NCBI GenBank assembly: GCA_017539865.1
Contig: JAFYCE010000078.1
Coordinates: forward strand, 27,419 to 91,418
Reading direction: 5' to 3'
DNA length: 64,000 nucleotides
Source: Alphaproteobacteria bacterium
GTDB lineage: Bacteria; Pseudomonadota; Alphaproteobacteria; CAAGCB01; CAG-977
Below the pieces are notes generated by a model, which was not told where the DNA came from, searched no databases, and saw only the letters and a program-made list of their open reading frames with translations. A program made the translations under genes and the position numbers. Shown here in pieces: positions 45,625-64,000 of this stretch. How positions within the stretch are numbered: the first letter of the stretch is position 1; every line of letters begins with the position of its first letter.

Positions 45625-45627
45625 GCC

Positions 45628-46314: not shown

Positions 46315-46393
46315 AATTTTTTAACCTTCTTTCTTTCCTTCCCGATTCAATTAGGATAGAGTATACCAGATTTTTAATTCAGGAGAATACTTT

Positions 46394-48139: not shown

Positions 48140-48990
48140 GTCAAAACAAGATCCCTTAATTCCGGCGTAATTTCCGGCATGACACCAAACCAAGCCTGAA
48201 AAGCCGGACACGCCTGATGCAGAAGCATTCCCAATCCGTCCGCCGTAATGTACCCTTTTTCTTCGGCTTGTTTCAATAATGCCGTTTTCAAAGGAGAATA
48301 CACCAGATCCGCGACAATCGCCGACGCATCCAAACCGGACAGGTCGATTTCCAGCGGATCGAACCCGTTCATCCCGAGTGTCGTTGCATTGGCAAGCAAT
48401 CCTGCGTCATTTAAAACCGTTTCTTTTTTACTCCATTCGATCAGACGAAAATTCCCGCCGACCGAAGCGGCAAGTTTTTCGGCTTTTTCCCTTGTCCTGT
48501 AAACCAGCCTGATTTCCGGCACGCCGGCTAAGACCAGAGCCGCACAAACTCCTCTGGCCGCTCCGCCCGTTCCCAAAATGACAACGGGTTTTTGCTTAAT
48601 ATCAAAGTCTTTCTTTTTTTCCTGAATATTGGCTAAAAAGCCTAAACCGTCCGTGTTATGTCCGAATAAAGTCCCGTCTTTTCCGACAATGACGGTATTG
48701 ACGGCGCCCGCTTTTTTCGCCGCATCGGACAGCTCGTCCATCAATTTCATCACGGCGACTTTATGCGGAACGGTGACGTTGATTCCGGCAAAATCTTTTT
48801 CTTTTAAAGAAAGTATAAATTTTTCCAGTTCTTCCGGCTTGACTTCAAAAGCATCGTATTGCGCCTGAACGCCGTATTTTTTCAGCCAGTAATTATGAAT
48901 AACCGGAGATTTTGAATGATGAACGGGAAAACCGATGACGCCGGCCCTTTTCAAGGTCATTTTTTCAGTTCCCCGCACTGGCGCAGACAA
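48136..48990 (-). CDS. aroE: Shikimate dehydrogenase
   Basis: GVIGFPVHHSKSP, ILGTGGAARG, ...NTVI...G.NTDG.G.; the exact start is uncertain. Confidence 0.88.
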   Translation of the reverse strand: MSAPVRGTEKMTLKRAGVIGFPVHHSKSPVIHNYWLKKYGVQAQYDAFEVKPEELEKFILSLKEKDFAGINVTVPHKVAVMKLMDELSDAAKKAGAVNTVIVGKDGTLFGHNTDGLGFLANIQEKKKDFDIKQKPVVILGTGGAARGVCAALVLAGVPEIRLVYRTREKAEKLAASVGGNFRLIEWSKKETVLNDAGLLANATTLGMNGFDPLEIDLSGLDASAIVADLVYSPLKTALLKQAEEKGYITADGLGMLLHQACPAFQAWFGVMPEITPELRDLVLT

Positions 48991-49547
48991 TCCAACAACG
49001 GCAGCAAAGGCAGTCCCAAAACCGAAAAATAATCGCCTTCAAAAGACTTTACCAGCTGCGCGCCCAAGTCCTCCATATAATAAGCCCCGACAGAATAACA
49101 AACTTCTTCACCCGCTTCCGCCAGATAATCATCAAGAAAATTATCGGAAAAGTCGCGCATTGTCACTTTAACGACAGAATTGTCAAACCAAATCAATTTT
49201 CCGTTTTTAACAACCGCCGTCCCGTTCACCAATAAATGCGTCTTATTGCGCAGTTTTTTCAAATGTTTGTGCGCCATGCTCAAATCGGCCGGTTTTGAAA
49301 ACCATTCGCCGTTCATGTCCAGAATCTGATCCGCGCCGATAACGAAGGCTTTCGGATACTTTTTAGAAACGGCCATCGCTTTTTCGGTCGCCAGTTTCAA
49401 GCTTGCCTGTTTGCTGTCGCAACCGGCGGAGCGCATTTCGGATTTGATCGTTTCCTCGTCAATATCGGCGGAAACGCTTTTAAACTCAACGCCCGCAGCG
49501 TCCAAAAGGTCTTGCCTGCTTTTGCTTTGAGAAGCCAATATCAACAT
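48957..49547 (-). CDS. maf: Maf-family nucleotide pyrophosphatase (septum formation protein)
   Basis: MLILASQSKSRQDLL... Maf signature; the internal ATG (49547) is favoured over 49586. Confidence 0.85.
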   Translation of the reverse strand: MLILASQSKSRQDLLDAAGVEFKSVSADIDEETIKSEMRSAGCDSKQASLKLATEKAMAVSKKYPKAFVIGADQILDMNGEWFSKPADLSMAHKHLKKLRNKTHLLVNGTAVVKNGKLIWFDNSVVKVTMRDFSDNFLDDYLAEAGEEVCYSVGAYYMEDLGAQLVKSFEGDYFSVLGLPLLPLLDCLRQCGELKK

Positions 49548-49974
49548 TTTTCCACACTCCTGTGTATAAGTCTGATAAAACAACATTCGATTTATTTTTA
49601 TCCCTTTTATGCCATTATGTCCCGTTTTTTATGCATATGTGTATAAAAATTTTTATTTGTTTGACTATAACGGGGATAACGACTTATCCCCGTTATCCAC
49701 AAAACGGAGCGACTCGCCGTAATATTGTTTTTTCCGTTTTTTTATTTTTTATTTTTCCAGAATAAGGGGACTGTGACCGTTTCTGTTGAAAACCTGTTGA
49801 TAAAAAAGTATCCGACTTATGCACAGAAACAAAGGATAACAACATCCTTTTTTATATAATTTATTGAAGATATTTTTTTCAGCTTGACCGGAAACGCCAA
49901 AAAAGATAAAACAAAACTCTCTTCTCTTTGGCGATATTCCGCCGTTTTCCAATCATAACAAAGACAGAATAAAT

Positions 49975-51228
49975 ATGCATTTGAAGAATCTGAAAAAGAA
50001 ATCTCCGGCCGAGTTGTTGAATATGGCGGAGGAATTAGGCGTTGAAAACGCCTCGACGTTAAGAACGCAGGACTTGACTTTTGCCATTTTGAAACAGTTG
50101 GCAAACAACGAAGAAACCCTTTTGGACGAAGGCGTCATCGAGGTTTTGCAGGACGGTTTCGGCTTTTTGCGTTCACCGGAATCCAACTATTTGCCGGGAC
50201 CGGACGACATTTACGTTTCCCCCAGTCAGGTCAAAAAGTTCGGTTTGAGAACCGGTGACACGGTTGAAGGCGAACTCCGCGCTCCGAAAGACGGCGAAAG
50301 ATACTTTGCCCTTTCCAAGATTTCCAAGATTAACTTTGCCGATCCGGAAAACGTGCGTTACCGCATTAATTTCGATAACCTGACACCGCTGCATCCGAAC
50401 GAAAAAATCAGGATGGAAAACGATCTGGACAACAAAAACATGACGTCCAGAATCATCGACCTGATCTGTCCGCAGGGCAAAGGTCAGCGCGGCATGATTG
50501 TCGCGCCGCCCAGAACGGGTAAAACCGTCATGCTGCAAAATATCGCGCACGCGATTACGCAAAACAATCCGGAAATCTATCTGATTGTCCTGTTGATTGA
50601 CGAACGCCCCGAAGAAGTCACGGAAATGAGCCGCACGATTCAAGGCGAAGTCATCAGTTCGACGTTTGACGAACCGGCTTCCCGTCACGTTCAGGTTGCC
50701 GAAATGGTTATTGAAAAGGCTAAGAGACTGGTTGAACACAAGCGCGATGTCGTTATTCTGCTTGACTCGATTACGCGTCTGGCGCGCGCTTATAACACGG
50801 TCGTGCCAAGCTCCGGAAAGGTCTTGACCGGCGGCGTCGACGCCAACGCTTTGCAAAAACCGAAACGCTTTTTCGGCGCGGCCAGAAATATCGAGGAAGG
50901 CGGTTCCCTGACGATTATCGCCACTGCTTTGATCGATACGGGATCCCGTATGGACGAAGTGATTTTTGAAGAATTCAAAGGTACGGGCAATTCTGAAATC
51001 ATTCTGGATCGCAAAGTGTCCGACAAGCGTATTTTCCCCGCAATCGACATTACGAAGTCCGGTACGCGCAAGGAAGAATTGCTGGTTGGTAAAGACATGC
51101 TGTCGAAAATGTGGGTTCTGCGTCGTGTGCTGATGCCGATGGGACCGGCGGACGCAATGGAGTTTTTGATGGAAAAACTGAAACAATCGAAAAACAATCA
51201 CGACTTTTTCGACGCGATGAACTCTTAG
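49975..51228 (+). CDS. rho: Transcription termination factor Rho
   Basis: N-terminal RNA-binding domain, Walker [18 protein letters not shown], and Q/R loops; 417 aa. Preceded by a long AT-rich leader. Confidence 0.97.
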
Positions 51229-51306
51229 TATTGCCCGTACGGGATATTTCATACGGGAAATAACGCCCTCCCCGACGGGAGGAATTTAATTTGAAAGGGT
51301 TGAACA

Positions 51307-52389
51307 ATGAAGCGTTCTTTTGTGGCTTTGCCGGATTATATGATCGGAACCGACGTTTATCAAAAAGCGTCCGTCATCTTGAAAAAATACGGTAAAACGG
51401 CGGTGATCATCGGCGGAAAGACGGCGATGGCGGTAGCGGCGGAAAAGCTGACGAAAGAATTGGACGGCGTTGAAGTTCTGGGACAGGTTTGGTTCGGCGG
51501 GGATTCCACTTATGAAAACGTCGATATGTTGACCGCCGACGAAACCGTTCAAAAAGCCGATATGATTCTGGCTATGGGCGGCGGCAAGTGTTGCGATACC
51601 TGCAAAGTGACGGCGGAACGGTTGGGAAAGCCTTTGTTCACGTTTCCGACGATTTCCTCGAACTGCGCGCCATGCACCGCTTTGGCGATCATGTATAACG
51701 CCGACGGCAGTTTCAAAAACAATTTTTACAGTTCACATCCGCCCGTTTGCGTGTTCATCAACGATCAGATCATCGCCGAGGCTCCGATCAAATACCTGCA
51801 GGCCGGTATCGGCGACGCTTTGAGCAAAGAACCGGAAGTTGCTCTGGCATTAAGAAATGTGAAACTTGACCAGAATTTATTGGTTGGCAAGTGCTTATGC
51901 GGCGCGTGTTCGGAACCGTTGTTGCAGTTCGGCGAAGAGGCGATGAAGTCCTGTGAAAATAAGAAAACCTCCGAAGCGTTGCAGGAAGTCGCCCTCTGCA
52001 TCATCATTTCCACGGGACTGGTCAGCAATATGACGGTTTGCCCCGAATTTTACTACAACACGAATCTGGCGCACTGTTTTTATTACGGCGCGACGATTTT
52101 TCCCGTGTCGCACAAGTATCTGCATGGATTTCTGGTCGCTTACGGCGTTCTGGCACTGTTGGAATACGACGGTCAGACGGCTTTGCGCGACCGCGTGCTG
52201 AAATTTTATAAAACAACGGGACTGCCGACGACTTTAGAAGAAATCGGATTGACCGAAGCCGATTTGTCCGCTTTAATCGACAAGGCGACCAAAGTCCCCG
52301 GCTGGCACGTTAAAGGATATGATTTAAGCGCGGACAAGTTTAAAAATGCCATTCTGCACATAGACACTTTGGGAAAGGCTTTGAATTAA
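51307..52389 (+). CDS. Iron-containing alcohol dehydrogenase family protein (glycerol dehydrogenase-like)
   Basis: GGGKCCDTCK is comparable to the GldA GGGKTLDTAK motif. NAD-binding N-terminus and a metal-ligand His region (HKYLHG); 360 aa. Confidence 0.6.
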   Translation: MKRSFVALPDYMIGTDVYQKASVILKKYGKTAVIIGGKTAMAVAAEKLTKELDGVEVLGQVWFGGDSTYENVDMLTADETVQKADMILAMGGGKCCDTCKVTAERLGKPLFTFPTISSNCAPCTALAIMYNADGSFKNNFYSSHPPVCVFINDQIIAEAPIKYLQAGIGDALSKEPEVALALRNVKLDQNLLVGKCLCGACSEPLLQFGEEAMKSCENKKTSEALQEVALCIIISTGLVSNMTVCPEFYYNTNLAHCFYYGATIFPVSHKYLHGFLVAYGVLALLEYDGQTALRDRVLKFYKTTGLPTTLEEIGLTEADLSALIDKATKVPGWHVKGYDLSADKFKNAILHIDTLGKALN

Positions 52390-52480
52390 CGAAAAATGAA
52401 ATTGTAAAACGACCGGATTACCGTTTAAAATACTGATATCATCATGACGGCCTGAAAACTTATTTGACGGAGATAATAAA

Positions 52481-52810
52481 ATGCAAATCGAAAAAACAAA
52501 GGAAGGCGATATTGTTGTTCTGAAAATCAGCGGTCAGCTGACATCTGTGACTTCACCTGAGTTGGAAACGGCTATCAACGGCGTTTTGGAAACGGAGAGC
52601 AATTTGGTTTTGGATTTTGCCGAATTGGATTTTCTGGCTTCTTCCGGTTTGCGCGTCATTCTTTCGACTCAGAAAAGAATAAACGCCAAAGACGGTGCCT
52701 TGGTCATTCGCAACGTTAACAAAGTTGTGATGGAAGTGTTCGAAATGACGGGTTTGCGTGATTTTTTGAACGTTTTTCAAGGTAATCGGCAGATTTCCGG
52801 TTCGAAATAG
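52481..52810 (+). CDS. STAS-domain anti-sigma-factor antagonist (SpoIIAA/RsbV-like)
   Basis: 109 aa with a conserved phosphorylatable Ser context (DFLASSGLRVIL). Confidence 0.8.
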   Translation: MQIEKTKEGDIVVLKISGQLTSVTSPELETAINGVLETESNLVLDFAELDFLASSGLRVILSTQKRINAKDGALVIRNVNKVVMEVFEMTGLRDFLNVFQGNRQISGSK

Positions 52811-52859
52811 CCGGATTACGGAAATTTATTAATATTCTTAACAAAACGGAACAAAAGCG

Positions 52860-55223
52860 ATGCCCGAAAAAAAAGTTCCTTCTTTGCACCGCGTTTTTCA
52901 GGCGTGGCTGCTGGTTTTTGTTTTTGCCGCTTTTTGCATTACATTCGGTCTGTCATATTTTTTTCAAACGCGTACAGCCCAAAACATGGCGGCGCATCAG
53001 GCCATTTTACATTTGGATTATATCGGCAATCAGGTCAAAGTCATCGAAAACGATTTGAAAGACCTGAAATCCGATTTAAGCAAAAGTCTGGTTGAAAAAG
53101 CCCGTGTTTTTTCTTTGCTTTTAAAATACAATCCGACTTTGCTGCACAATAAAGATTTTTTAAGCGAATGGAGCAAAGCCGCAGGGATAAAAGAAGTCAG
53201 CATTCTCGGTAAAGACGGTGTCGTTATAGAGGCTTTTCCCGAAGAATTTATCGATACCGACTTTAAAGAATTGGATTTTCTGCATCCTTATCTGCCTTTG
53301 ATTAACAAGAAGGATGGTCTTTATATCGAAGACATACGCACCAGTTACAAGAAAAGCGGCAGTACGAACTCATTGGTGCAGTTTGTCGGCGTATCGCGCT
53401 TGGATTCTCCGGGTGTCATTCAAATGGGTTATTCCGCCGAACGATATGCGGAAGCCTTGAAAACGGCGTCCGCCGATGTTTTGGCCGACGATTACGTTTT
53501 AGGAAAAGACGGCTTCGTCATTATCTCGCAGGACGGTAAGATTATCAGCGCCGGCAATAAAGAGTTAAAGGGAAAAAAGTTAACGGCTTCCGGTTGGAGC
53601 GTTATCAACGATATGCCCGAAGGAAAGCTCTTTTTAGAAACGATTGACGGAAAATCCGTTTTTCTGATGACGCGGCGGATTGATTCTTATCTTTTGTCCG
53701 TCGTTATGCCGAAAAGTGATGTTTACGCCTTTCGAAACACGATTTTATTATGGGCGGCGCTTGTTTACATACTTTTGTTGTCCATCGTTTATATTTTTCT
53801 GTCGGCGTTGTTGGAAAAAATCGTTGTTCGCGGAATTGAAAAAACGAACACGACGTTGGAAAAAATCACCGAAGGATATTTGGATGAGAAAGTCGATGTC
53901 CATTCAAATCAGGAATTTATTTCCTTGTCCAACGGCATCAACACGATGGTTGACGCTTTAAAAGACGCGATCGCCGAAGCGGCCGCCCGTTTGGATAAGG
54001 AACTTGAATTTGCCCGCGAAATTCAACACTCCGCTTTACCGCGCGTGTTTCCGCCGTATCCGAATAAAAACGAATTTGATATTTTTGCATCCATGACGGC
54101 GGCAAAGGAAGTCGGCGGCGATTTTTACGATTTCTTTTTATTGGGACACGCCGGAAGCCATGTCGGCATAGTCATTGCCGATGTGTCGGGAAAAGGAATT
54201 CCCGCCGCTTTATTTATGATGTCTGCCAAGACGTTGATTAAAAACTTTTCCGAAACGGGAATGTCGCCTGCAGAAATTTTTTATCATACCAATCAGAAAT
54301 TGTGTGAAAATAACGAAGCCGGCATGTTTGTAACGGCGTTTATGGGGATTTTGGAAATCGAAACGGGGAAATTCACCTATGTCAATGCGGGACATAATCC
54401 GCCGTTGATTAAACGGGGAAGCAGGGGTTTCGAACGGATGAAATTGAAATCGGGCTTTATGTTGGGCGGCTTGGATTCTTTCGTCTATCAACAAGAGGAA
54501 ATATATTTGGACGGTGACGATACCGTATTTCTGTATACGGACGGCGTGACCGAAGCGCAAAATAACAATTTACAGTTATTCGGCGACGACCGGCTGCACG
54601 ATGTTCTGAATAAAAACATCGGTAAAACGCCGAAAGAATTGCTGACTGCGGTGCAGGAAGCGGTGGCCGGATATGTTGACGGTGCGGAACAGTCCGACGA
54701 TTTAACGATGCTGGCGTTGTCGTATCATCCGAAAACAATCACCGTTTCCGCTGAAATCGAAAATCAGGACAAGGTCATGGACTTTGTCAACGAACGGCTG
54801 GAAAAGGCTTCCGCGCCGATGAAAGTCACCGCTCAGACGGATATCGTGATAGATGAGGTTTTTGCCAATATCTGTAATTATGCATACGCGCCTGACAAAG
54901 GGACGGCAACGATCCGCTGTTCTGTCGGCGGAACTCCCGCTTTTCTGTCTTTGGTATTCCGTGATAAGGGCAAGCCTTTTAATCCGTTGAATAAAGCCGA
55001 TCCCGATATTACGGCAAGCATAGAGGATCGCGAAATCGGCAATCTGGGCATATTCATGGTGAAACAGATTATGGATACTGTTGAATATGAATATAAAAAC
55101 GGCGAAAACGTGCTGACGATGACCAAGCATTTCGGAAACGTTCAGGATGAAGTCCAATCATCTGCCGAAGAAGATAAGATTTTGACGGATGATGGTGACA
55201 AAAGCTTTGAACATGATGAATAA
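52860..55223 (+). CDS. Membrane sensor-HAMP-PP2C (SpoIIE/RsbU-like) phosphatase fused to a C-terminal RsbW-like HATPase_c kinase domain
   Basis: Two TM segments flank a periplasmic domain of about 270 aa, followed by a HAMP domain. The PP2C motifs include GGDFYDF and DVSGKG...DGVTEA. The C-terminal 130 aa have GHKL-type N/G boxes (ICNYAY, NLGIFMV). Confidence 0.75.
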   Translation: MPEKKVPSLHRVFQAWLLVFVFAAFCITFGLSYFFQTRTAQNMAAHQAILHLDYIGNQVKVIENDLKDLKSDLSKSLVEKARVFSLLLKYNPTLLHNKDFLSEWSKAAGIKEVSILGKDGVVIEAFPEEFIDTDFKELDFLHPYLPLINKKDGLYIEDIRTSYKKSGSTNSLVQFVGVSRLDSPGVIQMGYSAERYAEALKTASADVLADDYVLGKDGFVIISQDGKIISAGNKELKGKKLTASGWSVINDMPEGKLFLETIDGKSVFLMTRRIDSYLLSVVMPKSDVYAFRNTILLWAALVYILLLSIVYIFLSALLEKIVVRGIEKTNTTLEKITEGYLDEKVDVHSNQEFISLSNGINTMVDALKDAIAEAAARLDKELEFAREIQHSALPRVFPPYPNKNEFDIFASMTAAKEVGGDFYDFFLLGHAGSHVGIVIADVSGKGIPAALFMMSAKTLIKNFSETGMSPAEIFYHTNQKLCENNEAGMFVTAFMGILEIETGKFTYVNAGHNPPLIKRGSRGFERMKLKSGFMLGGLDSFVYQQEEIYLDGDDTVFLYTDGVTEAQNNNLQLFGDDRLHDVLNKNIGKTPKELLTAVQEAVAGYVDGAEQSDDLTMLALSYHPKTITVSAEIENQDKVMDFVNERLEKASAPMKVTAQTDIVIDEVFANICNYAYAPDKGTATIRCSVGGTPAFLSLVFRDKGKPFNPLNKADPDITASIEDREIGNLGIFMVKQIMDTVEYEYKNGENVLTMTKHFGNVQDEVQSSAEEDKILTDDGDKSFEHDE

Positions 55224-55304
55224 ACAAATCGCCGGAGTTGTCCGTTTCGGCAATCAAGCTTCACGTTTCCGGTATTTGTTTGAAATTTTTTGTTTTTAAA
55301 ACGG

Positions 55305-55338
55305 CGGGGCGGAATTTTTATTAAAAAATTCCGCCCTT
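55305..55338 (+). terminator. Terminator hairpin after the PP2C/kinase gene, at the head of leader element A
   Basis: ggcggaatttttattaaaaaattccgcc followed by cttgttt. Confidence 0.6.
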
Positions 55339-55566
55339 GTTTCATGTGGAACATTTTTTTCTTGAAAGAAACCGGTATTCTTCATATTTTGGATACGTAT
55401 CGGCAACATTGGGTTGCCGGTAAAGTACCTTAGCGGGTGCAGAGATGCGCCATTATCCGTTTTGCTTATTACAAACACGGAAAATATTCTCGGATAACTT
55501 TAAAAGTCAAAAGATAATTGTTCTATGTGATTTTCTCAACCTCCCAAACTGCTGAAAGGTGATTTC
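55339..55566 (+). promoter_or_regulatory. Conserved structured 5' leader (copy A) upstream of the acyltransferase-3 gene
   Basis: Homologous to 59459-59801 upstream of the methyltransferase gene: near-palindrome TGTTTCATGTGGAACA, cttgaaagaaaccggtattcttc, acgtatcggc plus a hairpin, ccttagcgggtgcagag, ttatccgttttgc, acggaaaatat, and gatttctcaacctccc. Confidence 0.5.
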
Positions 55567-57021
55567 ATGAAAGAAAAAATTTTTGGTGCGCTAATGGCTT
55601 TAATCGTTTTGGCGTCGACAACGGGTTTATGGTTTTGTCATAAAGGAAAGATAACATTTTTGACAAATTTAAAACCGGAAACGGAAGTTCTTTTACAATA
55701 TCAGAAAAAAAACGACGGCAATTTAATATCCGTAAAGAAAAAATCGAAACCTGACGGCAAGATTTCATTTGAAGTTAAAGGAAGAACACTTTCTTATTTT
55801 AAAGTCAATGTGCCGGAGAATACAGTAATAAAAAATATTCAGTTCCGCGGTTGGAAAAAACAAAACATTATCCTGAACGCTCAAAATGAATATACGGGAA
55901 AAATACTGAGGAATCGTATCAGTATAACGGATTGGTATAATCTGATTGTTCTGGGAGGCTTGGGATACTATTTGGGATGGTTTTTAATTCATTCCTTAAA
56001 ATACGGCTTTCCGAAAGACGATCCGAAACTGCCGAAAATGTTAAATATCGAATTTTTGAGGATTGTGTTCACATTAATACTGGTTATTCATCATCTTAAT
56101 AATAATTTTCGGGAATTAAAAATATGGAATGCAGGCTGGTTAGGCGTTGAATTCTTTTTTATTTTAAGCGGTTTTTTATTAGTGTTAACTTTTCGTCCTG
56201 AAAAAACTGCAATCAGCTTTATTAAAAACAGATGGATTAGATTTGCACCTCTTGTCATTTTCGGAGGAGTATTGTCAAGTCTGTTTTTTAATCATGTAAG
56301 AGCAAGATATTTTGTAGAATCGATATTCTTTTATAGTTATGACTTCGATTTCATAAAATGGTATTATAATAAGCCTGTTTGGTATATTTATGTATTATTT
56401 TGGGTTGGAATATTTTATTTCTGTTTAATGAAGGCTTTTAAAAAGGAAATTGTAAATTTATTGATGTCCATTATTACTGTGTCAAGTCTTATCTATGTTA
56501 TGCGGTATAATGTTGCCACTTTAGGAATCTTTAGCGGTTGGATAATGCGCGGTTCGGCTTGTATGGGATTGGGGTATTTTTTAGCAGAAATATATAAAAA
56601 TGCGGAAAATGCCGTAATTGTTCGAAAGAAAACATACAATTCTTTTGAATTGTTTATACTTTTATTTTCAATATTTAATATAATATTTATAAAACAATTG
56701 TATATGGATCGGTTTGTTTCCTGTATTTCTTTTATGATTTTAATCCTATTATTTTCATTGAGAAAAGGTGCTATTTCGAATTTTTTCGAAAAACCCGTTT
56801 TTGCGAAAATAGCACGGTATTGTTTATCTGTATATCTGACACATTGGGTTGTAATACGACATATTTTTCCGATTTATTTGGAAAAATATAAAGAATTTTT
56901 TCTTGCGCATACAATTGTTCCGTTTTCTTTAGTTCTGATATCGGTATGCTTGTTAGGTGTTGTCACGCATCATGCGATTGAATTACCGGTAACTCGCATT
57001 TTGAAAAAATGGTTGGAATAA
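55567..57021 (+). CDS. Acyltransferase family 3 (OatA/WecH-like membrane O-acyltransferase) with an N-terminal extracytoplasmic extension of about 150 aa
   Basis: Acyltransferase_3 blocks (LRIVFTLILVIHH; WLGVEFFFILSGFLL) across about 10 TM segments; AT-rich. Confidence 0.7.
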   Translation: MKEKIFGALMALIVLASTTGLWFCHKGKITFLTNLKPETEVLLQYQKKNDGNLISVKKKSKPDGKISFEVKGRTLSYFKVNVPENTVIKNIQFRGWKKQNIILNAQNEYTGKILRNRISITDWYNLIVLGGLGYYLGWFLIHSLKYGFPKDDPKLPKMLNIEFLRIVFTLILVIHHLNNNFRELKIWNAGWLGVEFFFILSGFLLVLTFRPEKTAISFIKNRWIRFAPLVIFGGVLSSLFFNHVRARYFVESIFFYSYDFDFIKWYYNKPVWYIYVLFWVGIFYFCLMKAFKKEIVNLLMSIITVSSLIYVMRYNVATLGIFSGWIMRGSACMGLGYFLAEIYKNAENAVIVRKKTYNSFELFILLFSIFNIIFIKQLYMDRFVSCISFMILILLFSLRKGAISNFFEKPVFAKIARYCLSVYLTHWVVIRHIFPIYLEKYKEFFLAHTIVPFSLVLISVCLLGVVTHHAIELPVTRILKKWLE

Positions 57022-57047
57022 GTAAATTCAAATGGCAATTTTAAAAT

Positions 57048-57101
57048 AAAAAAAGCCGGGGAACTCCTCCGGCTTTTTGCTTTATAACTTGTTGATCCAA
57101 T
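57048..57101 (+). repeat. Direct repeat, left copy (duplicated 3' end plus terminator of the flavodoxin gene)
   Basis: aaaaaaagccggggaactcctccggctttttgctttataacttgttgatccaat versus 61493-61545 aaaaaaagccggaaaacttctccggctttttgctttataacctgttgatccaat. About 90% identity; a terminator hairpin lies inside. Confidence 0.8.
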
Positions 57102-57479
57102 AAGTGGCTTCGGTTTTTTAGAATTTATGGAATGATTCAAAAAAGTGGAAAAATAATATGACTGCGAATGGTAAATTTGCAGGCTTAATATGAATTTTTC
57201 TCTTAAAAGCAATCTCGATTTTTTGTTAAAACGGCATTTCTGTTTGATATTTTAAAGCGGTTATAGCTTTATAGTCCGTGACGAGCCGGTAATTTATCAC
57301 GGATTTTTTTGTAAAGATAAAATCGCACGGGTATCTATTATATCCTGAAAAAATATCCCTTCATTGAAAAAACAGTCTATAACGGCTATATAGACAACAA
57401 CTAATAGGCTATATACATTAAACAATGTCGGTTAAATAAAACAAGCTACTTTTAATAGTGTTAACAGGAGGTTTGAAAA

Positions 57480-57716
57480 ATGGGTAAAAAAGAAACACTG
57501 GATAATAATTTGAACTGTGAAAGAGGCTATTTGACTTTTAGGCAAAAAGAAGTGTTAGGATATTTGAGAAAAGGACTCTTAAACAAACAGATTGCTCACG
57601 CAATGGGATTGTCCGTTTCAACGATTAAACTGCACATTTCCGGTATTTTTATACGGCTGAACGTTAATACGCGGACGGCAGCGGTCGTCAAAGCGCAGGA
57701 ATTGGGATTGATTTGA
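57480..57716 (+). CDS. LuxR/GerE-type helix-turn-helix transcriptional regulator (HTH domain only)
   Basis: LTFRQKEVLGYLRKGLLNKQIAHAMGLSVSTIKLHISGIF matches the GerE HTH signature; 78 aa. Confidence 0.65.
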   Translation: MGKKETLDNNLNCERGYLTFRQKEVLGYLRKGLLNKQIAHAMGLSVSTIKLHISGIFIRLNVNTRTAAVVKAQELGLI

Positions 57717-57754
57717 GTTTAACATTTGGAATCGGAGCGGTTTTTCTAAAAGAA

Positions 57755-57770
57755 AAACCGCTCTTGTTTC
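57755..57770. promoter_or_regulatory. Perfect 16 bp palindrome TGTTTCATATGAAACA (copy 2), following a terminator hairpin
   Basis: Same palindrome at 59459-59474 and a near-copy at 55339-55354; each is preceded by a GC hairpin and followed by a T-run. Confidence 0.5.
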
Positions 57771-58108
57771 ATATGAAACATATTTAAATATTTTTCTTGT
57801 ATTCTGATAATGTATTGGTGCAAAAGAAAAATAAAAAAATGGCACAATTTGAAACGGACAGCATTGTTCTTATCACGACAATACGATTGTCAAAATTTTA
57901 GTGGCGTTACATCGGTAAAATTTTTGTTGAGATTTGTTTAAAAATCAGGATAATCTTAAGAGATAAAGAAAATGCTTCATTGGAAATATTTCTTTAAAAG
58001 TGGAAAATCGGCTTTTTGTCAGAAGTTTTTTAGATCATTTGAAATTTCAATATGATAGAGTGGGGATATGCTGGTTGAAATCTGAAAAAACAGCTGAAAA
58101 GGAAAAAA

Positions 58109-59011
58109 ATGCCGACGATAAAAAGCAAAACTCAATTTTTAAAAGAACTGATTGCATTGAAAGAAGTAATTGATGCAGGAAAAATCAGCACTGCAGCAGA
58201 TAAAAATGGATTGAAGTCGACTAATTTATCTAAATTGATTACATCTCTTGAAAGTCGATTGCATACGAAATTAATTTCAAGGTCTTCAAAGGGAGTATAT
58301 CCATTAGAAGAAGCTGTGAAAATAAATGAAACAACAGAAAAAATTATAAAGCTGCTTGAAGTCTTATTTGTTGAATATGGTCATAGTACAAAAATGACAG
58401 GCTGTATTTCCATATATTCCGAAGAGGATTATATCGGAAGCTATTTTTTTGAAAAATTACAAAAATTTTTGCAAAGTTATCCTTTTTTAAAGATAAAAAT
58501 TTTCTCTGGAGAAAAGGTGGATTTGGATCAAATGGATCTTATTATTTCCTCAAACGGTTCTAATTTATCACGTACGCGGTCTTTGTATAAAACAGAAATT
58601 CAAAGTCATTTTTATATATCGGATAAATATATTCAAAGACATGGAAAACCTGAAAATTTAAGTGATTTGTTGGAAAACCATTTCCTTTGTATGCGCCATA
58701 GCGATTTTCAACATAAGGAAATATCTTATATCATTAAAACGGCTAAACATTTAAATATAACGGCGGACGAAACCTCTATCGTATTTAGAGTTATTCAGAA
58801 TGGAGATGCTGTTGGCATTTTACCGGAATGGTGCGGAGATTTTGATCCTTCGGTCTTTAGGTTGGATAATGTTTTTATAAGCATCAAAAAAGATTTTGAT
58901 GTAATGTATAATATGAAAACAAAAAACGCTGTTATGATGAAATCTGTGCTGTCTTTTCTTAAAAATTTTAATAAAGAAGGAGAATTTTCTAAAAATCCTC
59001 CTTTAAATTAA
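58109..59011 (+). CDS. LysR-like transcriptional regulator
   Basis: N-terminal HTH pattern (L..L.ALKEVIDAGKISTAADKNGLKSTNLSKLITSLESRL...L..R) plus a co-inducer-binding domain of about 200 aa; very AT-rich. Confidence 0.5.
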   Translation: MPTIKSKTQFLKELIALKEVIDAGKISTAADKNGLKSTNLSKLITSLESRLHTKLISRSSKGVYPLEEAVKINETTEKIIKLLEVLFVEYGHSTKMTGCISIYSEEDYIGSYFFEKLQKFLQSYPFLKIKIFSGEKVDLDQMDLIISSNGSNLSRTRSLYKTEIQSHFYISDKYIQRHGKPENLSDLLENHFLCMRHSDFQHKEISYIIKTAKHLNITADETSIVFRVIQNGDAVGILPEWCGDFDPSVFRLDNVFISIKKDFDVMYNMKTKNAVMMKSVLSFLKNFNKEGEFSKNPPLN

Positions 59012-59101
59012 TTGCCCCGATGTTGGTTGATGAGAAAGATTTTATAGCTCCATACAAGAATAAAAAAACATCTCTTTATTGCAACATCGGAAGTAACAGA
59101 A

Positions 59102-59275
59102 TTATTTTTTCGATATGTCGGAGAGTGTTTCCGATTTCTGAATAAATTTTTCTTTTATCTTATTCAGAGATTTTGAAAAATGAGGATAATCAAATTGCAT
59201 AAAAAGTTCTTGCAATCCGTTAATTTGGTACAAGATATAGTCTTCTACATCGTTTTGTTTGAATTTTCTTTGCAT
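59102..59275 (-). CDS. Small hypothetical protein (57 aa)
   Basis: Minus-strand ORF MQRKFKQNDVEDYILYQINGLQELFMQFDYPHFSKSLNKIKEKFIQKSETLSDISKK with a strong SD (aaaggag) 7 nt upstream. Absent from the ORF track because it is under 60 aa. Confidence 0.3.
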   Translation of the reverse strand: MQRKFKQNDVEDYILYQINGLQELFMQFDYPHFSKSLNKIKEKFIQKSETLSDISKK

Positions 59276-59458
59276 TTTATACTCCTTTCATCGTTGATAT
59301 AAGAAGTATATTTTTTTTATGATTTATAACAAATTACCCATTTTATCATAAACCTGTATATTTTGAGGATATTCACGAACGCAGCTATAGGAGGCGGTTG
59401 TCAAGACGTAGAAACTGGGATTGGTCTGAAAGAAAACAAGGGCGGGTTATTCCGCCCT

Positions 59459-59801
59459 TGTTTCATATGAAACATTTTTTCTTTCTTGAAAGAAACCGGT
59501 ATTCTTCGTATTCTGAAAACGTATCGGCGGCACAGGGTCGTCGATAAAGCGCCTTAGCGGGTGCGGAGCCGTGAGAAGCTCTCATATATAGCCGGCGCAG
59601 AGATGCGTCGTTATCCGTTTTGCCTATGGGAAAACGGAAAATATCCCCGACTGTCTTTAATGATGGTTCGGGGGGCTTTTGACGTATGTTCAGAAGTCGC
59701 CGGTTTATCCCCGGACGATTTTAAAGGTCAAAAGGGTCATCGCTATATATGATTTCTCAACCTCCCGAACCGCCAAAAGGCGGTTTACGGGGGATTTTTT
59801 T
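59459..59801 (+). promoter_or_regulatory. Conserved structured 5' leader (copy B) upstream of the DNA methyltransferase gene
   Basis: Begins with a terminator hairpin (gggcgggttattccgccc) and the TGTTTCATATGAAACA palindrome. Shares ordered blocks with copy A, plus two insertions. Confidence 0.5.
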
Positions 59802-60914
59802 ATGGATAAACCGCATAATGCGATTTTAAATCAGGCTCAACGTATTAGAAACGATGAATTTTACACGCAATACGCCGATATTCAGTCGGAAATGAACGCT
59901 TATCTGGATTTTGATCCCGATGTGTTCCGCGACAAAACGGTTTTACTGCCGTGCGACGATCTGGAAGGGAGCAATTTCACCAAGTTTTTCGCGCAGAACT
60001 TTGAATTGTTCGGATTGAAAAAGCTGATCAGCACCAGCTACGCCGTTGAAAGCAAGCAATATAAGAAAGGCTATCAACCGACTTTGTTTGAAACGCGAAG
60101 CCCGTTGTTCGATTCGGACAAGACGCGGACGAACGGCAAGATTTTCACGCTGACCCGCGTCGAAGCCGAAAGGACGAATATCAACGCCCTGAAATGGGAC
60201 TATCTGGACGGCGACGGCGATTTCCGCAGTCCGGAGGTGACCGCTTTGCGCGACGAAGCCGACATTATCGTTACCAACCCGCCCTTCTCTTTGTTCCGCG
60301 CGTTTTTAGCGTGGATAATCGAAGGAAAGAAGACTTTTTCAATCATAGGAAATATCAATGCTCTGACATATCGGGAAGTGTTTCCGCTGATAACTTCAAA
60401 CAAAATTTGGTTAGGGCCCAGTATTTCAAGCGGAGACAGAGAATTTATAATACCTGAAGGAATTGTTGATTTTGAGAGATTTACAGGAATCATCCGGCAA
60501 AATGAAAAAGGGGAAAACATTTATTTTCAAAAAGTTGTCGGCGTCCGTTGGTTCACAAACATTGAACACGGCAAACGTCATCAACCGTTGTCCCTGATGA
60601 CGATGGCGGACAACGTCAAATTCAGCAAACACAAGGAAATCAAGGGCATCGGTTATCGGAAATACGATAATTACGACGCGTTGGAAGTTCCCTTTACCGA
60701 CGCGATCCCGTCCGATTACGACGGCGCGATGGGCGTTCCGATCAGCTTTCTGGATAAATACAATCCCGAACAGTTCGAAATCATCGGGGCTACGGAAAGT
60801 GAAGGCAGAGGGTTTTCAAACGGGCTTTGGCATGAAGAAAGTAAAACGCCTCAGCCTTTGATCGACAACAACAGAATCTTCAAACGTATCTTTATCAGGT
60901 ACAAGGGGAAATGA
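59802..60914 (+). CDS. N6-adenine-specific DNA methyltransferase (NPPF motif; EcoRI-methylase-like or phage-type family)
   Basis: DIIVTNPPFSLF is catalytic motif IV, and the N-terminal NDEFYTQ block fits. Start assigned to the ATG at 59802 (MDKPHNAIL), which is preceded by ggggga; the ORF track starts at 59679. Confidence 0.65.
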   Translation: MDKPHNAILNQAQRIRNDEFYTQYADIQSEMNAYLDFDPDVFRDKTVLLPCDDLEGSNFTKFFAQNFELFGLKKLISTSYAVESKQYKKGYQPTLFETRSPLFDSDKTRTNGKIFTLTRVEAERTNINALKWDYLDGDGDFRSPEVTALRDEADIIVTNPPFSLFRAFLAWIIEGKKTFSIIGNINALTYREVFPLITSNKIWLGPSISSGDREFIIPEGIVDFERFTGIIRQNEKGENIYFQKVVGVRWFTNIEHGKRHQPLSLMTMADNVKFSKHKEIKGIGYRKYDNYDALEVPFTDAIPSDYDGAMGVPISFLDKYNPEQFEIIGATESEGRGFSNGLWHEESKTPQPLIDNNRIFKRIFIRYKGK

Positions 60915-60915
60915 A

Positions 60916-61494
60916 ATGAAAACTTTTTTGAATCAAATCAGCGTGAAAGACATCTGTGAAGGCTTTATGTATAACGAACTGGAAGGGAAAGGACTGTACG
61001 GATTAAACGGAAAACTGGTCATTCAGCCGGAATATCAACGCAATTACATATATGCGGACGGCAAAAAGGATGTCGCCGTCATCGAATCCCTGATAAAAGG
61101 CTATCCGCTCGGGCTGATCTATTTCAACAAAACGGGGGATGACGCTTTTGAAGTTCTGGACGGTCAGCAGAGAATCACCAGCATCGGACGCTTTGTTACA
61201 AATCGTTTTGCCGTTAAGGATTCAAACGGAATGGAGCAAATCTTTGACGGCTTGGACAAGGAAATACGGGAAAAAATTTTAAACACAAAATTGCTTGTTT
61301 ACGAATGCGAAGGAACGGAAGCCGAAATCAAAGAATGGTTCAAAACGATCAATATCGCGGGGATTCCTTTGAACCGGCAGGAATTGATGAACGCGATCTA
61401 TTCGGGACCTTTCGTAACGGCGGCGCGACGGATATTTCCAACTGCGAAATGCTTTGCAAATCGCATAACCGCGCCAAAGGAAACCGTTGAATAA
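60916..61494 (+). CDS. DUF262/ParB-like (DGQQR motif) protein, possibly truncated or frameshifted
   Basis: FEVLDGQQRITSIGRF is the hallmark of the DUF262 N-terminal domain of GmrSD-type nucleases. Only 192 aa. A cryptic HNH-like motif is encoded in another frame at its 3' end. Starts 2 nt after the methyltransferase stop. Confidence 0.6.
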   Translation: MKTFLNQISVKDICEGFMYNELEGKGLYGLNGKLVIQPEYQRNYIYADGKKDVAVIESLIKGYPLGLIYFNKTGDDAFEVLDGQQRITSIGRFVTNRFAVKDSNGMEQIFDGLDKEIREKILNTKLLVYECEGTEAEIKEWFKTINIAGIPLNRQELMNAIYSGPFVTAARRIFPTAKCFANRITAPKETVE

Positions 61495-61545
61495 AAAAAG
61501 CCGGAAAACTTCTCCGGCTTTTTGCTTTATAACCTGTTGATCCAA
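61493..61545 (+). repeat. Direct repeat, right copy (authentic 3' end of the flavodoxin gene plus its terminator)
   Basis: See the left copy; on the minus strand it encodes ...DWINRL*. Confidence 0.8.
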
Positions 61546-62138
61546 TCGGCGATTTTGGCTTCAACCTGCTTATCGTATTTTTTATCCATGTTGTTAAAAT
61601 CCGCGTGTTGCAGGATTTTTGCATTTTTTGCGGTCGCGGCGAAATCTTCGAAGAATGTGCCGACATTGCTTCCCTGCGTTGAAAAAGGAACCACTTTTTT
61701 TCCTTTAAAATCAAGCTGTTCCAGAACAGAGAAAACCGGAGGGGCGACCGTGTACCACCAAACGGGCGCGCCGACGAAGACGATATCGTAAGCAGTAACG
61801 TCCGGCAGGGCTTCTACAACCGGATACTGTTTGTTTTTGATTTCCTTTTTCGATGTCGTGTAGAGTTTCGCACCGGTAGGATAAGCTTCTTTTGTTTTGA
61901 TTTCAAACGTGTCCGCATTCGTTTTCGCGGCAATTTTTTCCGCAATGTCTTTCGTGTGTCCCGTCAGCGAATAATATACGACCAGAACTTTGCCGAGGTC
62001 GTTCTTGACTTCGGCGGATTTGTTTTCGTATTGCGCCATTTCCTTTTTGTTTTTTGCCGAAACGCGGTAAAGACGGAACAAACCGCCTATGCCGCCGATG
62101 ACGACGGCCGCAATGATGATGCCTAAAACGTATTTCAT
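61527..62138 (-). CDS. Flavodoxin-family protein with an N-terminal membrane anchor
   Basis: VLVVYYSLTGHTKDIAEKIA is a flavodoxin FMN-binding loop; 203 aa. Confidence 0.7.
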   Translation of the reverse strand: MKYVLGIIIAAVVIGGIGGLFRLYRVSAKNKKEMAQYENKSAEVKNDLGKVLVVYYSLTGHTKDIAEKIAAKTNADTFEIKTKEAYPTGAKLYTTSKKEIKNKQYPVVEALPDVTAYDIVFVGAPVWWYTVAPPVFSVLEQLDFKGKKVVPFSTQGSNVGTFFEDFAATAKNAKILQHADFNNMDKKYDKQVEAKIADWINRL

Positions 62139-62750
62139 TTATAAAGCTCCCTTTGTGCTGGGGGTGATGTTCGCCGCTCTCGGGTCGGTTTCGGACGCGT
62201 GTCTGAACGCGCGGGCGAACGCTTTAAAGCACGATTCCGCGATATGGTGCGAATTGTCGCCGTACAGGTTTTCAATATGGATCGCCGCTTTCAGGTTGTC
62301 GGCGACGGCGGCGAAAAATTCTTTGAAAACTTCGGTGTCCAATTCTCCTACTTTCTCCGTCGGAAATTTGACGTGCCAGACAAACGCCGTCCGGCCGCTT
62401 AAATCAATGACACAGCGGGTCAGCGTTTCATCCATCGGAATGCACGCCGAACCGTATCTGTTCAGTCCTTTTTTGTCGCCCAGAGCCTGTGCTAAGGTTT
62501 TGCCCAGCACGATGCCTGTGTCTTCGACCAGATGATGCGCGTCAACGTGCAGGTCTCCGGTCGCTTTGACGGTCAGATCCACAAGGCTGTGGCGTGAAAA
62601 CTGCTCCAGCATGTGATCGAAAAAGCCGCATCCGGTATGGATGTCATATTTTCCGTCTCCGTCCAAATTCAAAGAAACGGAAATCTGCGTTTCCGTGGTC
62701 TTTCGTTCTAATTGAGCTTGCCGCATTGCTTTTTTTCTTCCTTTTCGCAA
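62139..62750 (-). CDS. hisB: Imidazoleglycerol-phosphate dehydratase
   Basis: IGPD motifs (RKTTETQISVSLNLDG; DAHHLVEDTGIVLG; DNSHHIAES). Confidence 0.9.
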   Translation of the reverse strand: MRKGRKKAMRQAQLERKTTETQISVSLNLDGDGKYDIHTGCGFFDHMLEQFSRHSLVDLTVKATGDLHVDAHHLVEDTGIVLGKTLAQALGDKKGLNRYGSACIPMDETLTRCVIDLSGRTAFVWHVKFPTEKVGELDTEVFKEFFAAVADNLKAAIHIENLYGDNSHHIAESCFKAFARAFRHASETDPRAANITPSTKGAL

Positions 62751-62796
62751 TAATCTGTTTTAAATCACTTTAACGCAGATTGACTGAGGAGGCAAC

Positions 62797-63339
62797 ATGG
62801 ACAATCAAACGCCGTCTTTAAGAGGAACGACAATCCTGTGCGTTCGCAAAAATGATTCCGTCGTCATCGCCGGCGACGGACAGGTGACTTTCGGCAACAC
62901 GGTTTTGAAAAGCAACGCGCGCAAAGTGCGGCGGTTGGGCAACGGTTCGATCATCGCCGGATTTGCCGGAGCGACCGCGGACGCTTTCACACTGTTTGAA
63001 CGGTTGGAGGAAAAAATCGAAAAGTTCTCCGGTCAGCTGACCCGCGCTTGTGTGGAATTGGCTAAGGATTGGCGCACCGACCGCTATTTGAGAAAGCTGG
63101 AAGCGATGATGATCGTGGCGGACAAGGAAACAACGCTTGTCCTGACCGGAAACGGCGACGTTCTGGAACCGCAGCACGGTCTGATCGGTATAGGGTCGGG
63201 CGGCTCTTACGCGCAGGCGGCGGCTTTGGCATTGATCGACACGGAATTGTCCGCCGAAGACATCGTTAAAAAGGCGATGGATATCGCCGCCGATATTTGC
63301 ATTTACACCAATCACAACATCGTTATGGAAAAGCTATGA
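62797..63339 (+). CDS. hslV: ATP-dependent protease subunit HslV
   Basis: N-terminal Thr after Met processing (TTILCVRK...), proteasome beta-like; 180 aa. Confidence 0.93.
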
Positions 63340-64000
63340 GTACGTTTTTTTCTCCGCGTGAAATCGTTTCCGAACTGGACAGGCATATCGTCGGGCAAAC
63401 CGAAGCCAAACGCGCCGTTGCGGTCGCTCTGCGCAACCGTTGGCGCAGACAGCAGCTTTCTCCCGCTTTAAAAGAGGAAGTCGTTCCCAAAAACATTCTG
63501 ATGATCGGTCCCACCGGTGTCGGAAAGACGGAAATCGCCCGCCGTCTGGCTAAGCTGGCGCAGGCTCCCTTTATCAAAACGGAAGCGACGAAGTTTACGG
63601 AAATCGGCTATGTGGGCCGCGATGTGGAAAGCATCATTCGAGACTTGTTGGAAATCTCGATTACGATGACGCGCAAGAAAATGCGTAAAAGCGTCCATGT
63701 CAAAGCCGAAGAAGCGGCCGAAAAACGTGTCCTTGACGCTCTGGTCGGATTGAACGCAACTGAGGAAACACGGCAAAAGTTCCGTAAAATGCTCCGTGAA
63801 GGCTCTTTGGACGACAGGGAAATCGAAATCGAAGTGCAGGAAGCGCCGAACAACTCCATGCCGACGTTTGATATTCCGGGGATGCCGGGGGCGCAAATGG
63901 GCATGATCAGCTTGGGCGATCTGCTGGGCGGCAAAGGAACTTCTTTCCGTAAAAAGAAAATGACCGTCAAGGATTCCTATGACGTTTTGGTGACGGAAGA
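63336..64000 (+). CDS. hslU: ATP-dependent protease ATPase subunit HslU (5' partial, runs off the window end)
   Basis: [15 protein letters not shown]..., Walker [16 protein letters not shown]; start overlaps the hslV stop (ATGA). Confidence 0.93.

Follow-up and report, generated by a model that had tools for sequence, protein, structure and literature searches.

The 64,000-nucleotide stretch analyzed here (the window; contig JAFYCE010000078.1) comes from an alphaproteobacterium, and positions 57048-61545 of it, which end in the 3′ end of a flavodoxin gene, had been interpreted by a first-pass annotation as a site-specifically integrated element. We find that the region between STAS-SpoIIE-luxR and flavodoxin-hisB-hslVU is a hypervariable accessory and defence hotspot, and we consider it probable, if far from certain, that two alternative cassettes of this one locus are stacked in the window: a restriction-modification (R-M) cassette at the canonical site and an ectopic fragment of an acyltransferase cassette. 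Each of the phenomena involved is known (variable hotspots, R-M units that move, rearrangements that generate repeats), and the locus is a new example of them. What had been observed in the flagged segment was largely correct; the interpretation as an integrated island is not supported.

The features of the locus are collected in Table 1. Pfam bore out the gene content that the first-pass annotation had given for the flagged segment, namely LuxR, LysR, a small open reading frame (ORF), an adenine methylase and a nuclease-like protein. Its remark that no integrase, recombinase or transposase is visible was equally sound: the seven main window ORFs in 52860-61494 gave no match to a recombinase family in Pfam, and the genes adjoining the locus on same-strain contigs are housekeeping genes with no recombinase among them.

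Table 1. Coordinates, strand and basis of the features at the locus, including blocks collinear with the relative L020 (window positions unless a contig is named)
Feature	Position	Strand	Basis or remark
STAS gene	52481-52810	+	Pfam; part of the conserved left frame of the hotspot (52481-55223)
SpoIIE/HATPase_c_2 sensor phosphatase	52860-55223	+	Pfam, translation, gene calls on same-strain contigs; 97.4% vs L020
SpoIIE terminator hairpin, left half (…AACAAATCGCCGGAG)	55223-55237	+	alignment to L020 terminator
Putative ectopic acyltransferase cassette with stubs of both neighbours ('luxR...'flavodoxin), ~2 kb	55238-57217	+	no counterpart here in L020; GC 0.32
luxR 3′ half, pseudogene	55238-55300	+	in the putative ectopic cassette
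luxR-stub terminator	55306-55337	+	in the putative ectopic cassette
Imperfect palindrome	55338-55353		copy of TGTTTCATATGAAACA in the putative ectopic cassette
Promoter-like site	55362-55390	+	in the putative ectopic cassette
Degraded leader X1	ends 55566	+	35 bits vs 299 for X2 (covariance model R1)
Acyl_transf_3 gene	55567-57021	+	in the putative ectopic cassette, followed by Y1
Y1, left repeat copy	57045-57116		terminator hairpin and stub of ~14 flavodoxin codons, ...WINKL*
~100 nt without homologue	57117-57217		between flavodoxin stub and right half of SpoIIE terminator
Resident regulatory block	57218-59458	+	collinear with L020 3145-5380 (~96%) and L001 14369-12322 (88%); GC 0.32
GerE/LuxR gene (luxR), 78-amino-acid protein	57480-57716	+	Pfam
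luxR terminator	57734-57764	+	resident block
Perfect 16-bp palindrome TGTTTCATATGAAACA	57765-57780		overlaps luxR terminator
lysR	58109-59011	+	Pfam LysR
57-amino-acid ORF	59102-59275	minus	resident block
Decayed luxR 3′ copy	~59330-59432	+	resident block
Terminator after decayed luxR copy	59435-59462	+	resident block
Cassette left border: palindrome and promoter-like site	59459-59544	+	three-way alignment, promoter scan
Palindrome TGTTTCATATGAAACA, canonical cassette copy	59459-59474		three-way alignment
Promoter-like site TTGAAA-N17-TATTCT, sigma-70-like	59486-59514	+	promoter scan
Leader X2, 257-nt structured RNA (predicted)	59545-59801	+	multi-branched fold, intrinsic terminator; 3′ arm contains methylase Shine-Dalgarno
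Other X copies	L040:7744-8000, L039:374-630, L042:5744-6001; L002:12124-12380, L011:11233-11481	minus (L002, L011)	
Type II R-M pair	59802-61494	+	Pfam, PADLOC
EcoRI-family adenine methylase	59802-60914	+	PF13651 5.5e-114; PADLOC MTase_II 1.8e-85
DUF262/GmrSD_N-HNH nuclease remnant	60916-61494	+	Pfam GmrSD_N/DUF262; 192-amino-acid ORF
Y2, right repeat copy	61490-61561		terminator common to nuclease remnant and flavodoxin, plus true flavodoxin 3′ end
Flavodoxin gene	61527-62138	minus	Pfam Flavodoxin_4
Block collinear with L020 354-3084	52469-55190		97.4%
Block collinear with L020 3145-5564	57220-59646		96.3%
Block collinear with L020 5369-7166	55328-57099		92.6%
Block collinear with L020 7115-9172	61493-63550		91.4%

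The flagged segment lies between the direct-repeat copies Y1 and Y2, which a repeat search delimited as 72 nt of 85% identity with a spacing of 4445. Their core (57045-57101 and 61490-61546) has 4 mismatches in 57 nt (53/57 alike, 93%), in agreement with the imperfect ~53-bp direct repeats reported earlier, and Y2, described there as the 3′ end of flavodoxin, covers the final 11 codons and the stop codon of that gene; direct reading confirms that the left copy closes with ...WINKL* and the right with ...WINRL*. Each copy combines a bidirectional terminator hairpin with the closing codons of flavodoxin. The hairpins fold on either strand at -15.6 to -18.1 kcal/mol, so the statement that both still form despite their substitutions is true, if trivially, since the 5-bp GCCGG/CCGGC hairpin core is identical in Y1 and Y2. 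The two copies have in common the lineage-specific states ctttttgctttataac, which are absent from the related loci L001-L003, and their identity falls abruptly at ~57101-57116 and is not carried on into flavodoxin. Within the 64-kb window, a 39-nt degenerate pattern built from the core hits Y1 and Y2 only (0 expected from 100 shuffles), and the hairpin type AAAGCCGG...CCGGCTTT likewise has just two occurrences there; a dispersed terminator family, against which the first-pass annotation had proposed to check the repeat, is therefore not seen within the window.

Other properties of the segment agree less well with its repeats. It had been described as AT-rich, which is true of 57218-59547, where the guanine-plus-cytosine (GC) content is 0.32, and not of 59548-61494, which at 0.44-0.50 resembles the flanking core genes. 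The low-GC block (about 55250-59400, GC about 0.30-0.32) starts 1.8 kb to the left of Y1 and stops about halfway through the flagged segment; the GC profile suggested as a check thus gives low GC in the left half and borders that do not match the repeats. In addition, a second direct-repeat pair, absent from the first-pass annotation, is interleaved with Y: X1 (55238-55590) and X2 (59390-59801); part of it is present a third time, at 57609-57786. The spacing is similar in both pairs (4124-4221 for X, 4445 for Y), and the repeat copies differ by 7-16%, as much as species-level relatives do.

A variable hotspot between conserved flanks

In uncultured rumen Alphaproteobacteria, the locus is anchored by flavodoxin (L001-L004, 92-60% protein identity; compared contigs carry L numbers). 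Exact-protein look-ups retrieved L020 with hslV and were also productive with SpoIIE and the acyltransferase; those with flavodoxin and Rho gave no matches, and a metagenome scan with flavodoxin yielded three useful loci, mostly short. By DNA and protein synteny, the backbone of rho and Fe-ADH, a variable interval, and flavodoxin, hisB and hslV is kept in L001-L004 and L011. The interval consists of 58 bp and nothing more in L004; it holds luxR, other ORFs and two tandem flavodoxins in L003, luxR-lysR-small ORF followed by XRE, HARE-HTH and lipoprotein genes in L001, and luxR-X-acyltransferase in L002. Further relatives have an acyltransferase (L034), an AAA_14/DUF4143 ATPase of the PDC-S01 type (L035/L036), a PDDEXK_4 protein with a 66-nt remnant of the window's HNH tail (L038) or an intact HNH domain adjoining flavodoxin (L010) at the locus. 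The flanks are conserved and the content differs among relatives, as in a variable defence or accessory hotspot, and neither the ORFs nor the gene calls of these related loci include an integrase, transposase or resolvase (ORF lists of L001-L003; L020, L034-L036 and L038).

L020 is a related strain and, among relatives with a simple layout, the closest; it reads STAS-SpoIIE-luxR-lysR-small ORF-X-acyltransferase-Y-flavodoxin-hisB-hslV, with a single cassette and a single Y. The SpoIIE and luxR-lysR blocks, which are contiguous in L020, are equally close to it, and the acyltransferase block that stands between them in the window is more diverged. The first-pass annotation had suggested a search of relatives for an empty site, and none was found that lacks exactly the flagged segment: L004 is empty across the whole 9-kb region and not just across this segment, and L020 holds the left 2.4 kb elsewhere in the locus. 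The strain was also assembled from at least five samples, in contigs that match the window at 99.9-100% identity and cover 45259-58161 and 54963-57490 (L029-L033) and 58329-64000 (L021, L022); all of these have the composite arrangement, with no excised or single-cassette form among them. Samples in which the strain is present include ERZ28653672, ERZ27256878, ERZ28018973, SRR12529266 and SRR31077517.

The left part of the flagged segment belongs to the frame of the hotspot. The genes luxR, lysR and the small ORF follow in the same order right after SpoIIE in L020 (96.3% identity) and directly behind the Fe-ADH gene in L001 (88% identity); judged by this synteny, the left 2.4 kb of the segment, from the intergenic region through luxR and lysR to the small ORF, is resident DNA. 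The resident block also takes in the right half of the SpoIIE terminator, and of two spacers that had no significant homology in the initial search (57117-57387 and 52390-52860), L020 later accounted for 57220-57387. On either side of lysR and the 57-amino-acid ORF lies a copy of the luxR 3′ end together with its terminator and palindrome (57609-57786 and ~59330-59480); luxR is present in L002, L003, L012 and L038, from which lysR and the small ORF are missing. The palindrome TGTTTCATATGAAACA lies just upstream of a sigma-70-like promoter and is a candidate operator for the 78-amino-acid GerE/LuxR protein.

Compared with L020, the extra DNA of the window extends from 55238 to ~57217, lies mostly to the left of the flagged segment and breaks the SpoIIE terminator hairpin. 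In L020 this terminator reads AAAAAGCCGGAG-AATTT-ATCCAGC-TTTTTGTTAAGACGGC (T-run TTTTTG) and folds at -12.1 kcal/mol (z -4.9); in the window it is split into a left arm, CGCCGGAG, at 55230-55237 and the right arm with its T-run, ATCTCGA-TTTTTTGTTAAAACGGC, at ~57212-57225. The right junction was placed to within ~8 nt, and both junctions are reproduced in the independent assemblies L029, L032 and L033. At 55238-55277, the luxR stub shares 82.5% identity with functional luxR genes and only ~55% with the decayed luxR copy upstream of the canonical cassette (by-eye count on alignments); its resemblance to functional luxR fits a donor of the form luxR-palindrome-X-acyltransferase-Y-flavodoxin, as in L002. 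In a three-way alignment, the point at which acyltransferase-type and R-M-type sequences switch is the palindrome at 59459-59474.

A restriction-modification module with an RNA leader

The remainder of the flagged segment encodes a methylase together with an endonuclease gene, a pairing by which the module is classed as a Type II R-M system. The partner nuclease is intact in L040 (398 amino acids) and L042 (386 amino acids), and the L040 protein matches REase_II of PADLOC over its full length (PDLC03418, 9.3e-93). The window has no intact endonuclease: a 586-nt deletion between two 10-bp direct repeats, AACGGCGGCG (window 61416-61425; L040 9582-9591 and 10168-10177), has removed the middle of the gene and shifted the frame, leaving a 192-amino-acid ORF and, in the other frame, the HNH tail at 61416-61490. 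The window nuclease is, as predicted from this lesion, dead and the methylase orphaned. L038 retains the HNH tail alone (6736-6801), beginning at the same point as the deletion junction of the window.

The R-M unit is mobile. The methylase-nuclease pair is kept in L040, L042, L046 and plasmids, and the unit of leader X, methylase and nuclease lies between infC and uvrD in L040/L041 (87% nucleotide identity), in another context in L039 (methylase 96% identical) and, in a version 74-77% identical, next to gyrB in L042-L045. Plasmids of Actinobacteria, Firmicutes and Bacteroidetes commonly carry the pair without X; the nuclease gene is also present in a few phages, and the methylase family is very large. 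Because the unit recurs in three other chromosomal contexts, only 59548-61490 (X, methylase and nuclease remnant) is judged to be the mobile part of the flagged segment. No flanking direct repeats or target duplication surround the R-M unit in L040 or L042. The suggestion of a decayed island can be upheld for this 1.9-kb module, in view of the nuclease deletion, and not for the rest of the segment, which consists of resident regulators.

The unit is preceded by the leader X, whose window copy X2 has a minimum free energy of -129 kcal/mol (z -7.0 versus shuffles). In an alignment of six long-form copies, representing only ~4 independent lineages, the structure comprises 82 pairs with 95.8% of cells paired; 17 of the 82 pairs have changed on both sides, as compared with 6.3 (standard deviation 1.9) in shuffles and 2-7 in controls slid by 1-3 columns. 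In the long-range closing helix, 6 of 8 pairs covary, in four different and perfectly complementary versions. The terminal hairpin (-22.2 kcal/mol) is followed by U7, 0-3 nt ahead of the ATG, and is the predicted expression platform. With the covariance model R1, the copies before R-M pairs scored 296-299 bits (window X2, L040, L039) and 219 bits (L042), and those before acyltransferases 278 bits (L002) and 99.5 bits (L034, clipped by the contig end); degraded copies scored 122 bits in L020, 43 bits in L011 (second copy), 35 bits for window X1, which has lost the terminator, and 32 bits in L004. Between the window and L040, X is identical at 253 of 254 nt (99.6%); the methylase is 84.9% and the 5′ part of the nuclease 90.8% identical.

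Searches for X in other collections were negative. The whole window gave no match among the 4227 families of Rfam 15 (the best score for 59380-59830, 22.7 bits, is at chance level and far under the gathering threshold), X was not found in viral contigs, a phage collection or plasmids, nor upstream of the 67%-identical methylase of L046-L048, and a literature search for an RNA motif tied to DUF262 or EcoRI-type methylases returned nothing relevant. A 63-amino-acid ORF lies within X2 (59561-59752) and is not taken for a gene, as deletions in X1 and the L020 copy break it. The sequence GCSCCTTGTTTC was considered as the common left end of all X modules and dropped; it is the -35 region in L040 and lies 25-30 nt further upstream in the window.

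Expression of R-M systems has to be controlled, and C proteins and antisense RNAs are among the regulators known to do so; a terminator that overlaps a Shine-Dalgarno sequence is the usual layout of a transcription-attenuation switch. Like riboswitch and attenuator leaders, X is long, structured and 5′-located, its intrinsic terminator overlaps the first gene's Shine-Dalgarno sequence, and an R-M operon lies downstream; unlike known leaders, X has no match in Rfam, and intact copies also stand before acyltransferases (L002, L034). We infer that X is a functional attenuator-type leader, which would have arrived with the R-M unit and would stay as a leader or scar after the cargo is replaced. 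A more far-reaching idea, which we offer only tentatively and consider rather doubtful, is that X represents a new class of structured regulatory RNA that travels with a Type II R-M unit, possibly timing its expression in a new host, and that persists afterwards as a leader open to reuse and as portable homology; X and the terminator hairpins would jointly let cassettes swap and stack at the hotspot without a dedicated recombinase. The most useful by-product of the analysis, X has strong covariation behind it and offers a testable candidate for control of an R-M system at the RNA level.

Probable cassette stacking and competing histories

The cassettes of this locus share conserved borders, with the luxR terminator and palindrome, the promoter and leader X on the left and the bidirectional flavodoxin terminator Y on the right, and at the canonical site of the window the R-M cassette (X2, methylase, dead nuclease) stands in place of the acyltransferase. 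In the explanation that we prefer, relatives would swap cassettes by general homologous recombination in these shared borders (regulator block, palindrome and X on one side, Y and flavodoxin on the other). A ~2-kb fragment of the alternative allele, reaching from mid-luxR through the palindrome, X1, the acyltransferase and Y to the last ~14 flavodoxin codons, would have been inserted ectopically, 4.2 kb upstream, in the loop of the SpoIIE terminator hairpin, where the join was probably illegitimate or made by template switching. Once two alleles of one locus are stacked, two interleaved direct-repeat pairs of similar spacing, X1/X2 and Y1/Y2, necessarily result, and Y1 would then be a carried-along stub and not an attachment site. 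We prefer this two-event history because it takes the fewest steps, places both junctions in one 5-nt hairpin loop and fits the identity pattern. The SpoIIE terminator of L020 (L020:3104-3150) significantly resembles the junction of nuclease tail and Y hairpin in the window (61481-61525) over 46 nt, with 0 of 2000 shuffles as good, a hint that these hairpins may be recurrent recombination joints.

Several points weigh against cassette stacking. The case of the split hairpin has a single comparator, L020, and the SpoIIE-luxR spacer of L038 and L012 is shorter and has no such hairpin. The right junction is incompletely explained, in that 57117-57217 has no detectable homologue in any locus fetched; its resemblance to flavodoxin is not significant (135 of 2000 shuffles reached an equal score). 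No contig shows the predicted pre-insertion state, an R-M cassette combined with an intact SpoIIE terminator. The suggested direction and order of events come from parsimony and identity levels only. Finally, when compared with the acyltransferase-Y-flavodoxin junction of L020, the flagged segment formally looks like an R-M-containing insertion with a target duplication of 57-72 bp.

This formal property is the starting point of another history, in which the flagged 4.4-kb segment is itself the inserted unit. A chunk from a relative (right half of the SpoIIE terminator, luxR, lysR, X2, R-M, Y) would have entered beside the flavodoxin of a SpoIIE-luxR-X1-acyltransferase-Y-flavodoxin genome and duplicated Y. 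The route would have been one-sided homologous recombination in flavodoxin together with an illegitimate join, or else a circle that recombined at Y in a single crossover; the older luxR would later have been partly deleted. R-M complexes have been described as mobile units, with 'insertion with long target duplication' and allelic substitution among their modes and with earlier Helicobacter pylori work cited (Furuta, Abe and Kobayashi 2010, PMC2853133), and the segment has the formal marks given there: homologues of R and M inside, a length below 20 kb and a duplication of more than 30 bp over a gene 3′ end (here 4.4 kb and 57-72 bp). L020 has its one Y between the acyltransferase and flavodoxin, as a comparator should, yet part of the supposed insert lies upstream in it, and the split SpoIIE terminator speaks for a different order of events. 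The lysR gene and small ORF, absent in relatives, are flanked by duplicated luxR 3′ ends, so that, with the Y pair, a gene-end duplication footprint occurs twice at the locus. We nevertheless regard this history as unlikely: it needs at least three events; it needs two independent breakpoints in the same 5-nt hairpin loop; it predicts a common history of SpoIIE and X1-acyltransferase, and the identities to L020 are 97.4% for SpoIIE, 92.6% for the acyltransferase and 96.3% for luxR-lysR; and the R-M modules of L040 and L042 lack a flanking target duplication. As a further alternative, the whole block between the SpoIIE terminator and the flavodoxin 3′ end could have been duplicated in tandem in situ, after which the first copy suffered deletions and R-M took the place of the second acyltransferase. 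Such a history would account for the near-equal spacing of the X and Y pairs and for the states ctttttgctttataac that Y1 and Y2 share and L001-L003 lack. We find it improbable, as it requires one duplication, two deletions and one swap, the copies are 7-16% apart, as between species-level relatives, the identity stops at ~57101-57116 with the next 100 nt unrelated to flavodoxin, and the luxR stub is like functional luxR and unlike the local decayed copy.

Classical site-specific integration, with an integrase encoded elsewhere and the flavodoxin terminator as the att site of a 4.4-kb island, is very improbable. Direct repeats over a gene 3′ end with a low-GC stretch inside are what it would leave, and as in attL/attR islands and prophages at the 3′ ends of tRNA or protein genes, the repeats restore the 3′ end and terminator and the composition nearby is deviant. 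Unlike such islands, the segment has no integrase (no recombinase occurs in it, in the same-strain neighbour genes or in the related-locus ORFs and gene calls examined), its repeats are 93% identical and not identical, its interior is composed of resident and mobile DNA that differ in GC and in distribution among relatives, its GC borders are off the repeats, and there is no clean empty site; moreover, the same R-M module occurs elsewhere without the Y repeat, and the same-strain contigs from at least five samples have the composite form only. The site-specifically integrated element of the first-pass annotation lacks a recombinase, att-bounded DNA with a matching empty site in relatives, and a coherent interior. 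Its idea that DNA has been added at the locus stands, with a unit, borders and mechanism other than those it proposed. An integron-like reading of the hairpins was rejected, there being no integrase. An assembly chimera driven by the repeats may come to mind in a metagenome-type assembly, particularly as contigs from two samples both stop at 58161 and resume at 58329 or 58476. We give it hardly any credence, since the repeats are merely 84-93% identical, L029, L032 and L033 cross 55238-57490, L021 and L022 cross 58329-64000, and lysR is an intact ORF over the uncovered 58161-58329 that is contiguous in L020 and L001.

Relation to known systems

The R-M units of PMC2853133 offer the nearest parallels to the mobile module: the window has a Type II methylase-nuclease pair without a recombinase, which is present on plasmids and at several chromosomal positions unrelated to one another and displaces other genes at a polymorphic locus, and, as in the Haemophilus influenzae cases, its segment is bounded by direct repeats of more than 30 bp over a gene 3′ end. 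Unlike those cases, the repeat-bounded segment of the window includes 2.4 kb of resident regulators, an ectopic copy of a neighbouring cassette accounts better for its repeat, the R-M units of L040 and L042 lack a target duplication, and the module has a conserved structured RNA leader, which is not described in that paper. An att-like repeat can arise from the stacking of two alleles of a variable locus, which calls for caution when islands are called from repeats only.

Defence islands and integration hotspots between conserved core genes are a general concept. The present locus resembles them in its conserved flanks, its content that varies by relative, its defence-type genes (R-M, PDC-S01, PD-(D/E)XK) and its gene remnants; it differs in its non-defence cargo (acyltransferase, lipoproteins, second flavodoxin), its own regulators and its reusable frame of leader and terminator. 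It adds, from the poorly known Alphaproteobacteria of the rumen, a defence and accessory hotspot that is recombinase-free, with an R-M unit that is found in four chromosomal contexts and whose nuclease is freshly inactivated in the window. A further parallel may be the sequential displacement of effector-immunity modules of the Vibrio cholerae type VI secretion system (PMC5361080), in which new modules reportedly arrive via shared-flank recombination, with older modules or stubs persisting as arrays; the window concerns other genes and another organism, and its older cassette is located upstream, in a terminator, and not downstream.

Several minor observations concern individual genes of the locus. 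In L003, the two tandem flavodoxin genes (L003:9308-10609) are 77% and 84% identical to the window protein. The lysR gene is frameshifted near codon 120-130 in L001 (L001:13275-13679), and within the window copy, 58161-58476 contains many A and T homopolymer runs. The acyltransferase (window 55567-57021 versus L001:18187-19659 and L002:10662-12122) has ~72-75% nucleotide identity over its first ~200 codons, and its Acyl_transf_3 domain has diverged to ~48-53% protein identity between lineages. The gene or pieces of it sit at differing positions in L001, L011 and L012.

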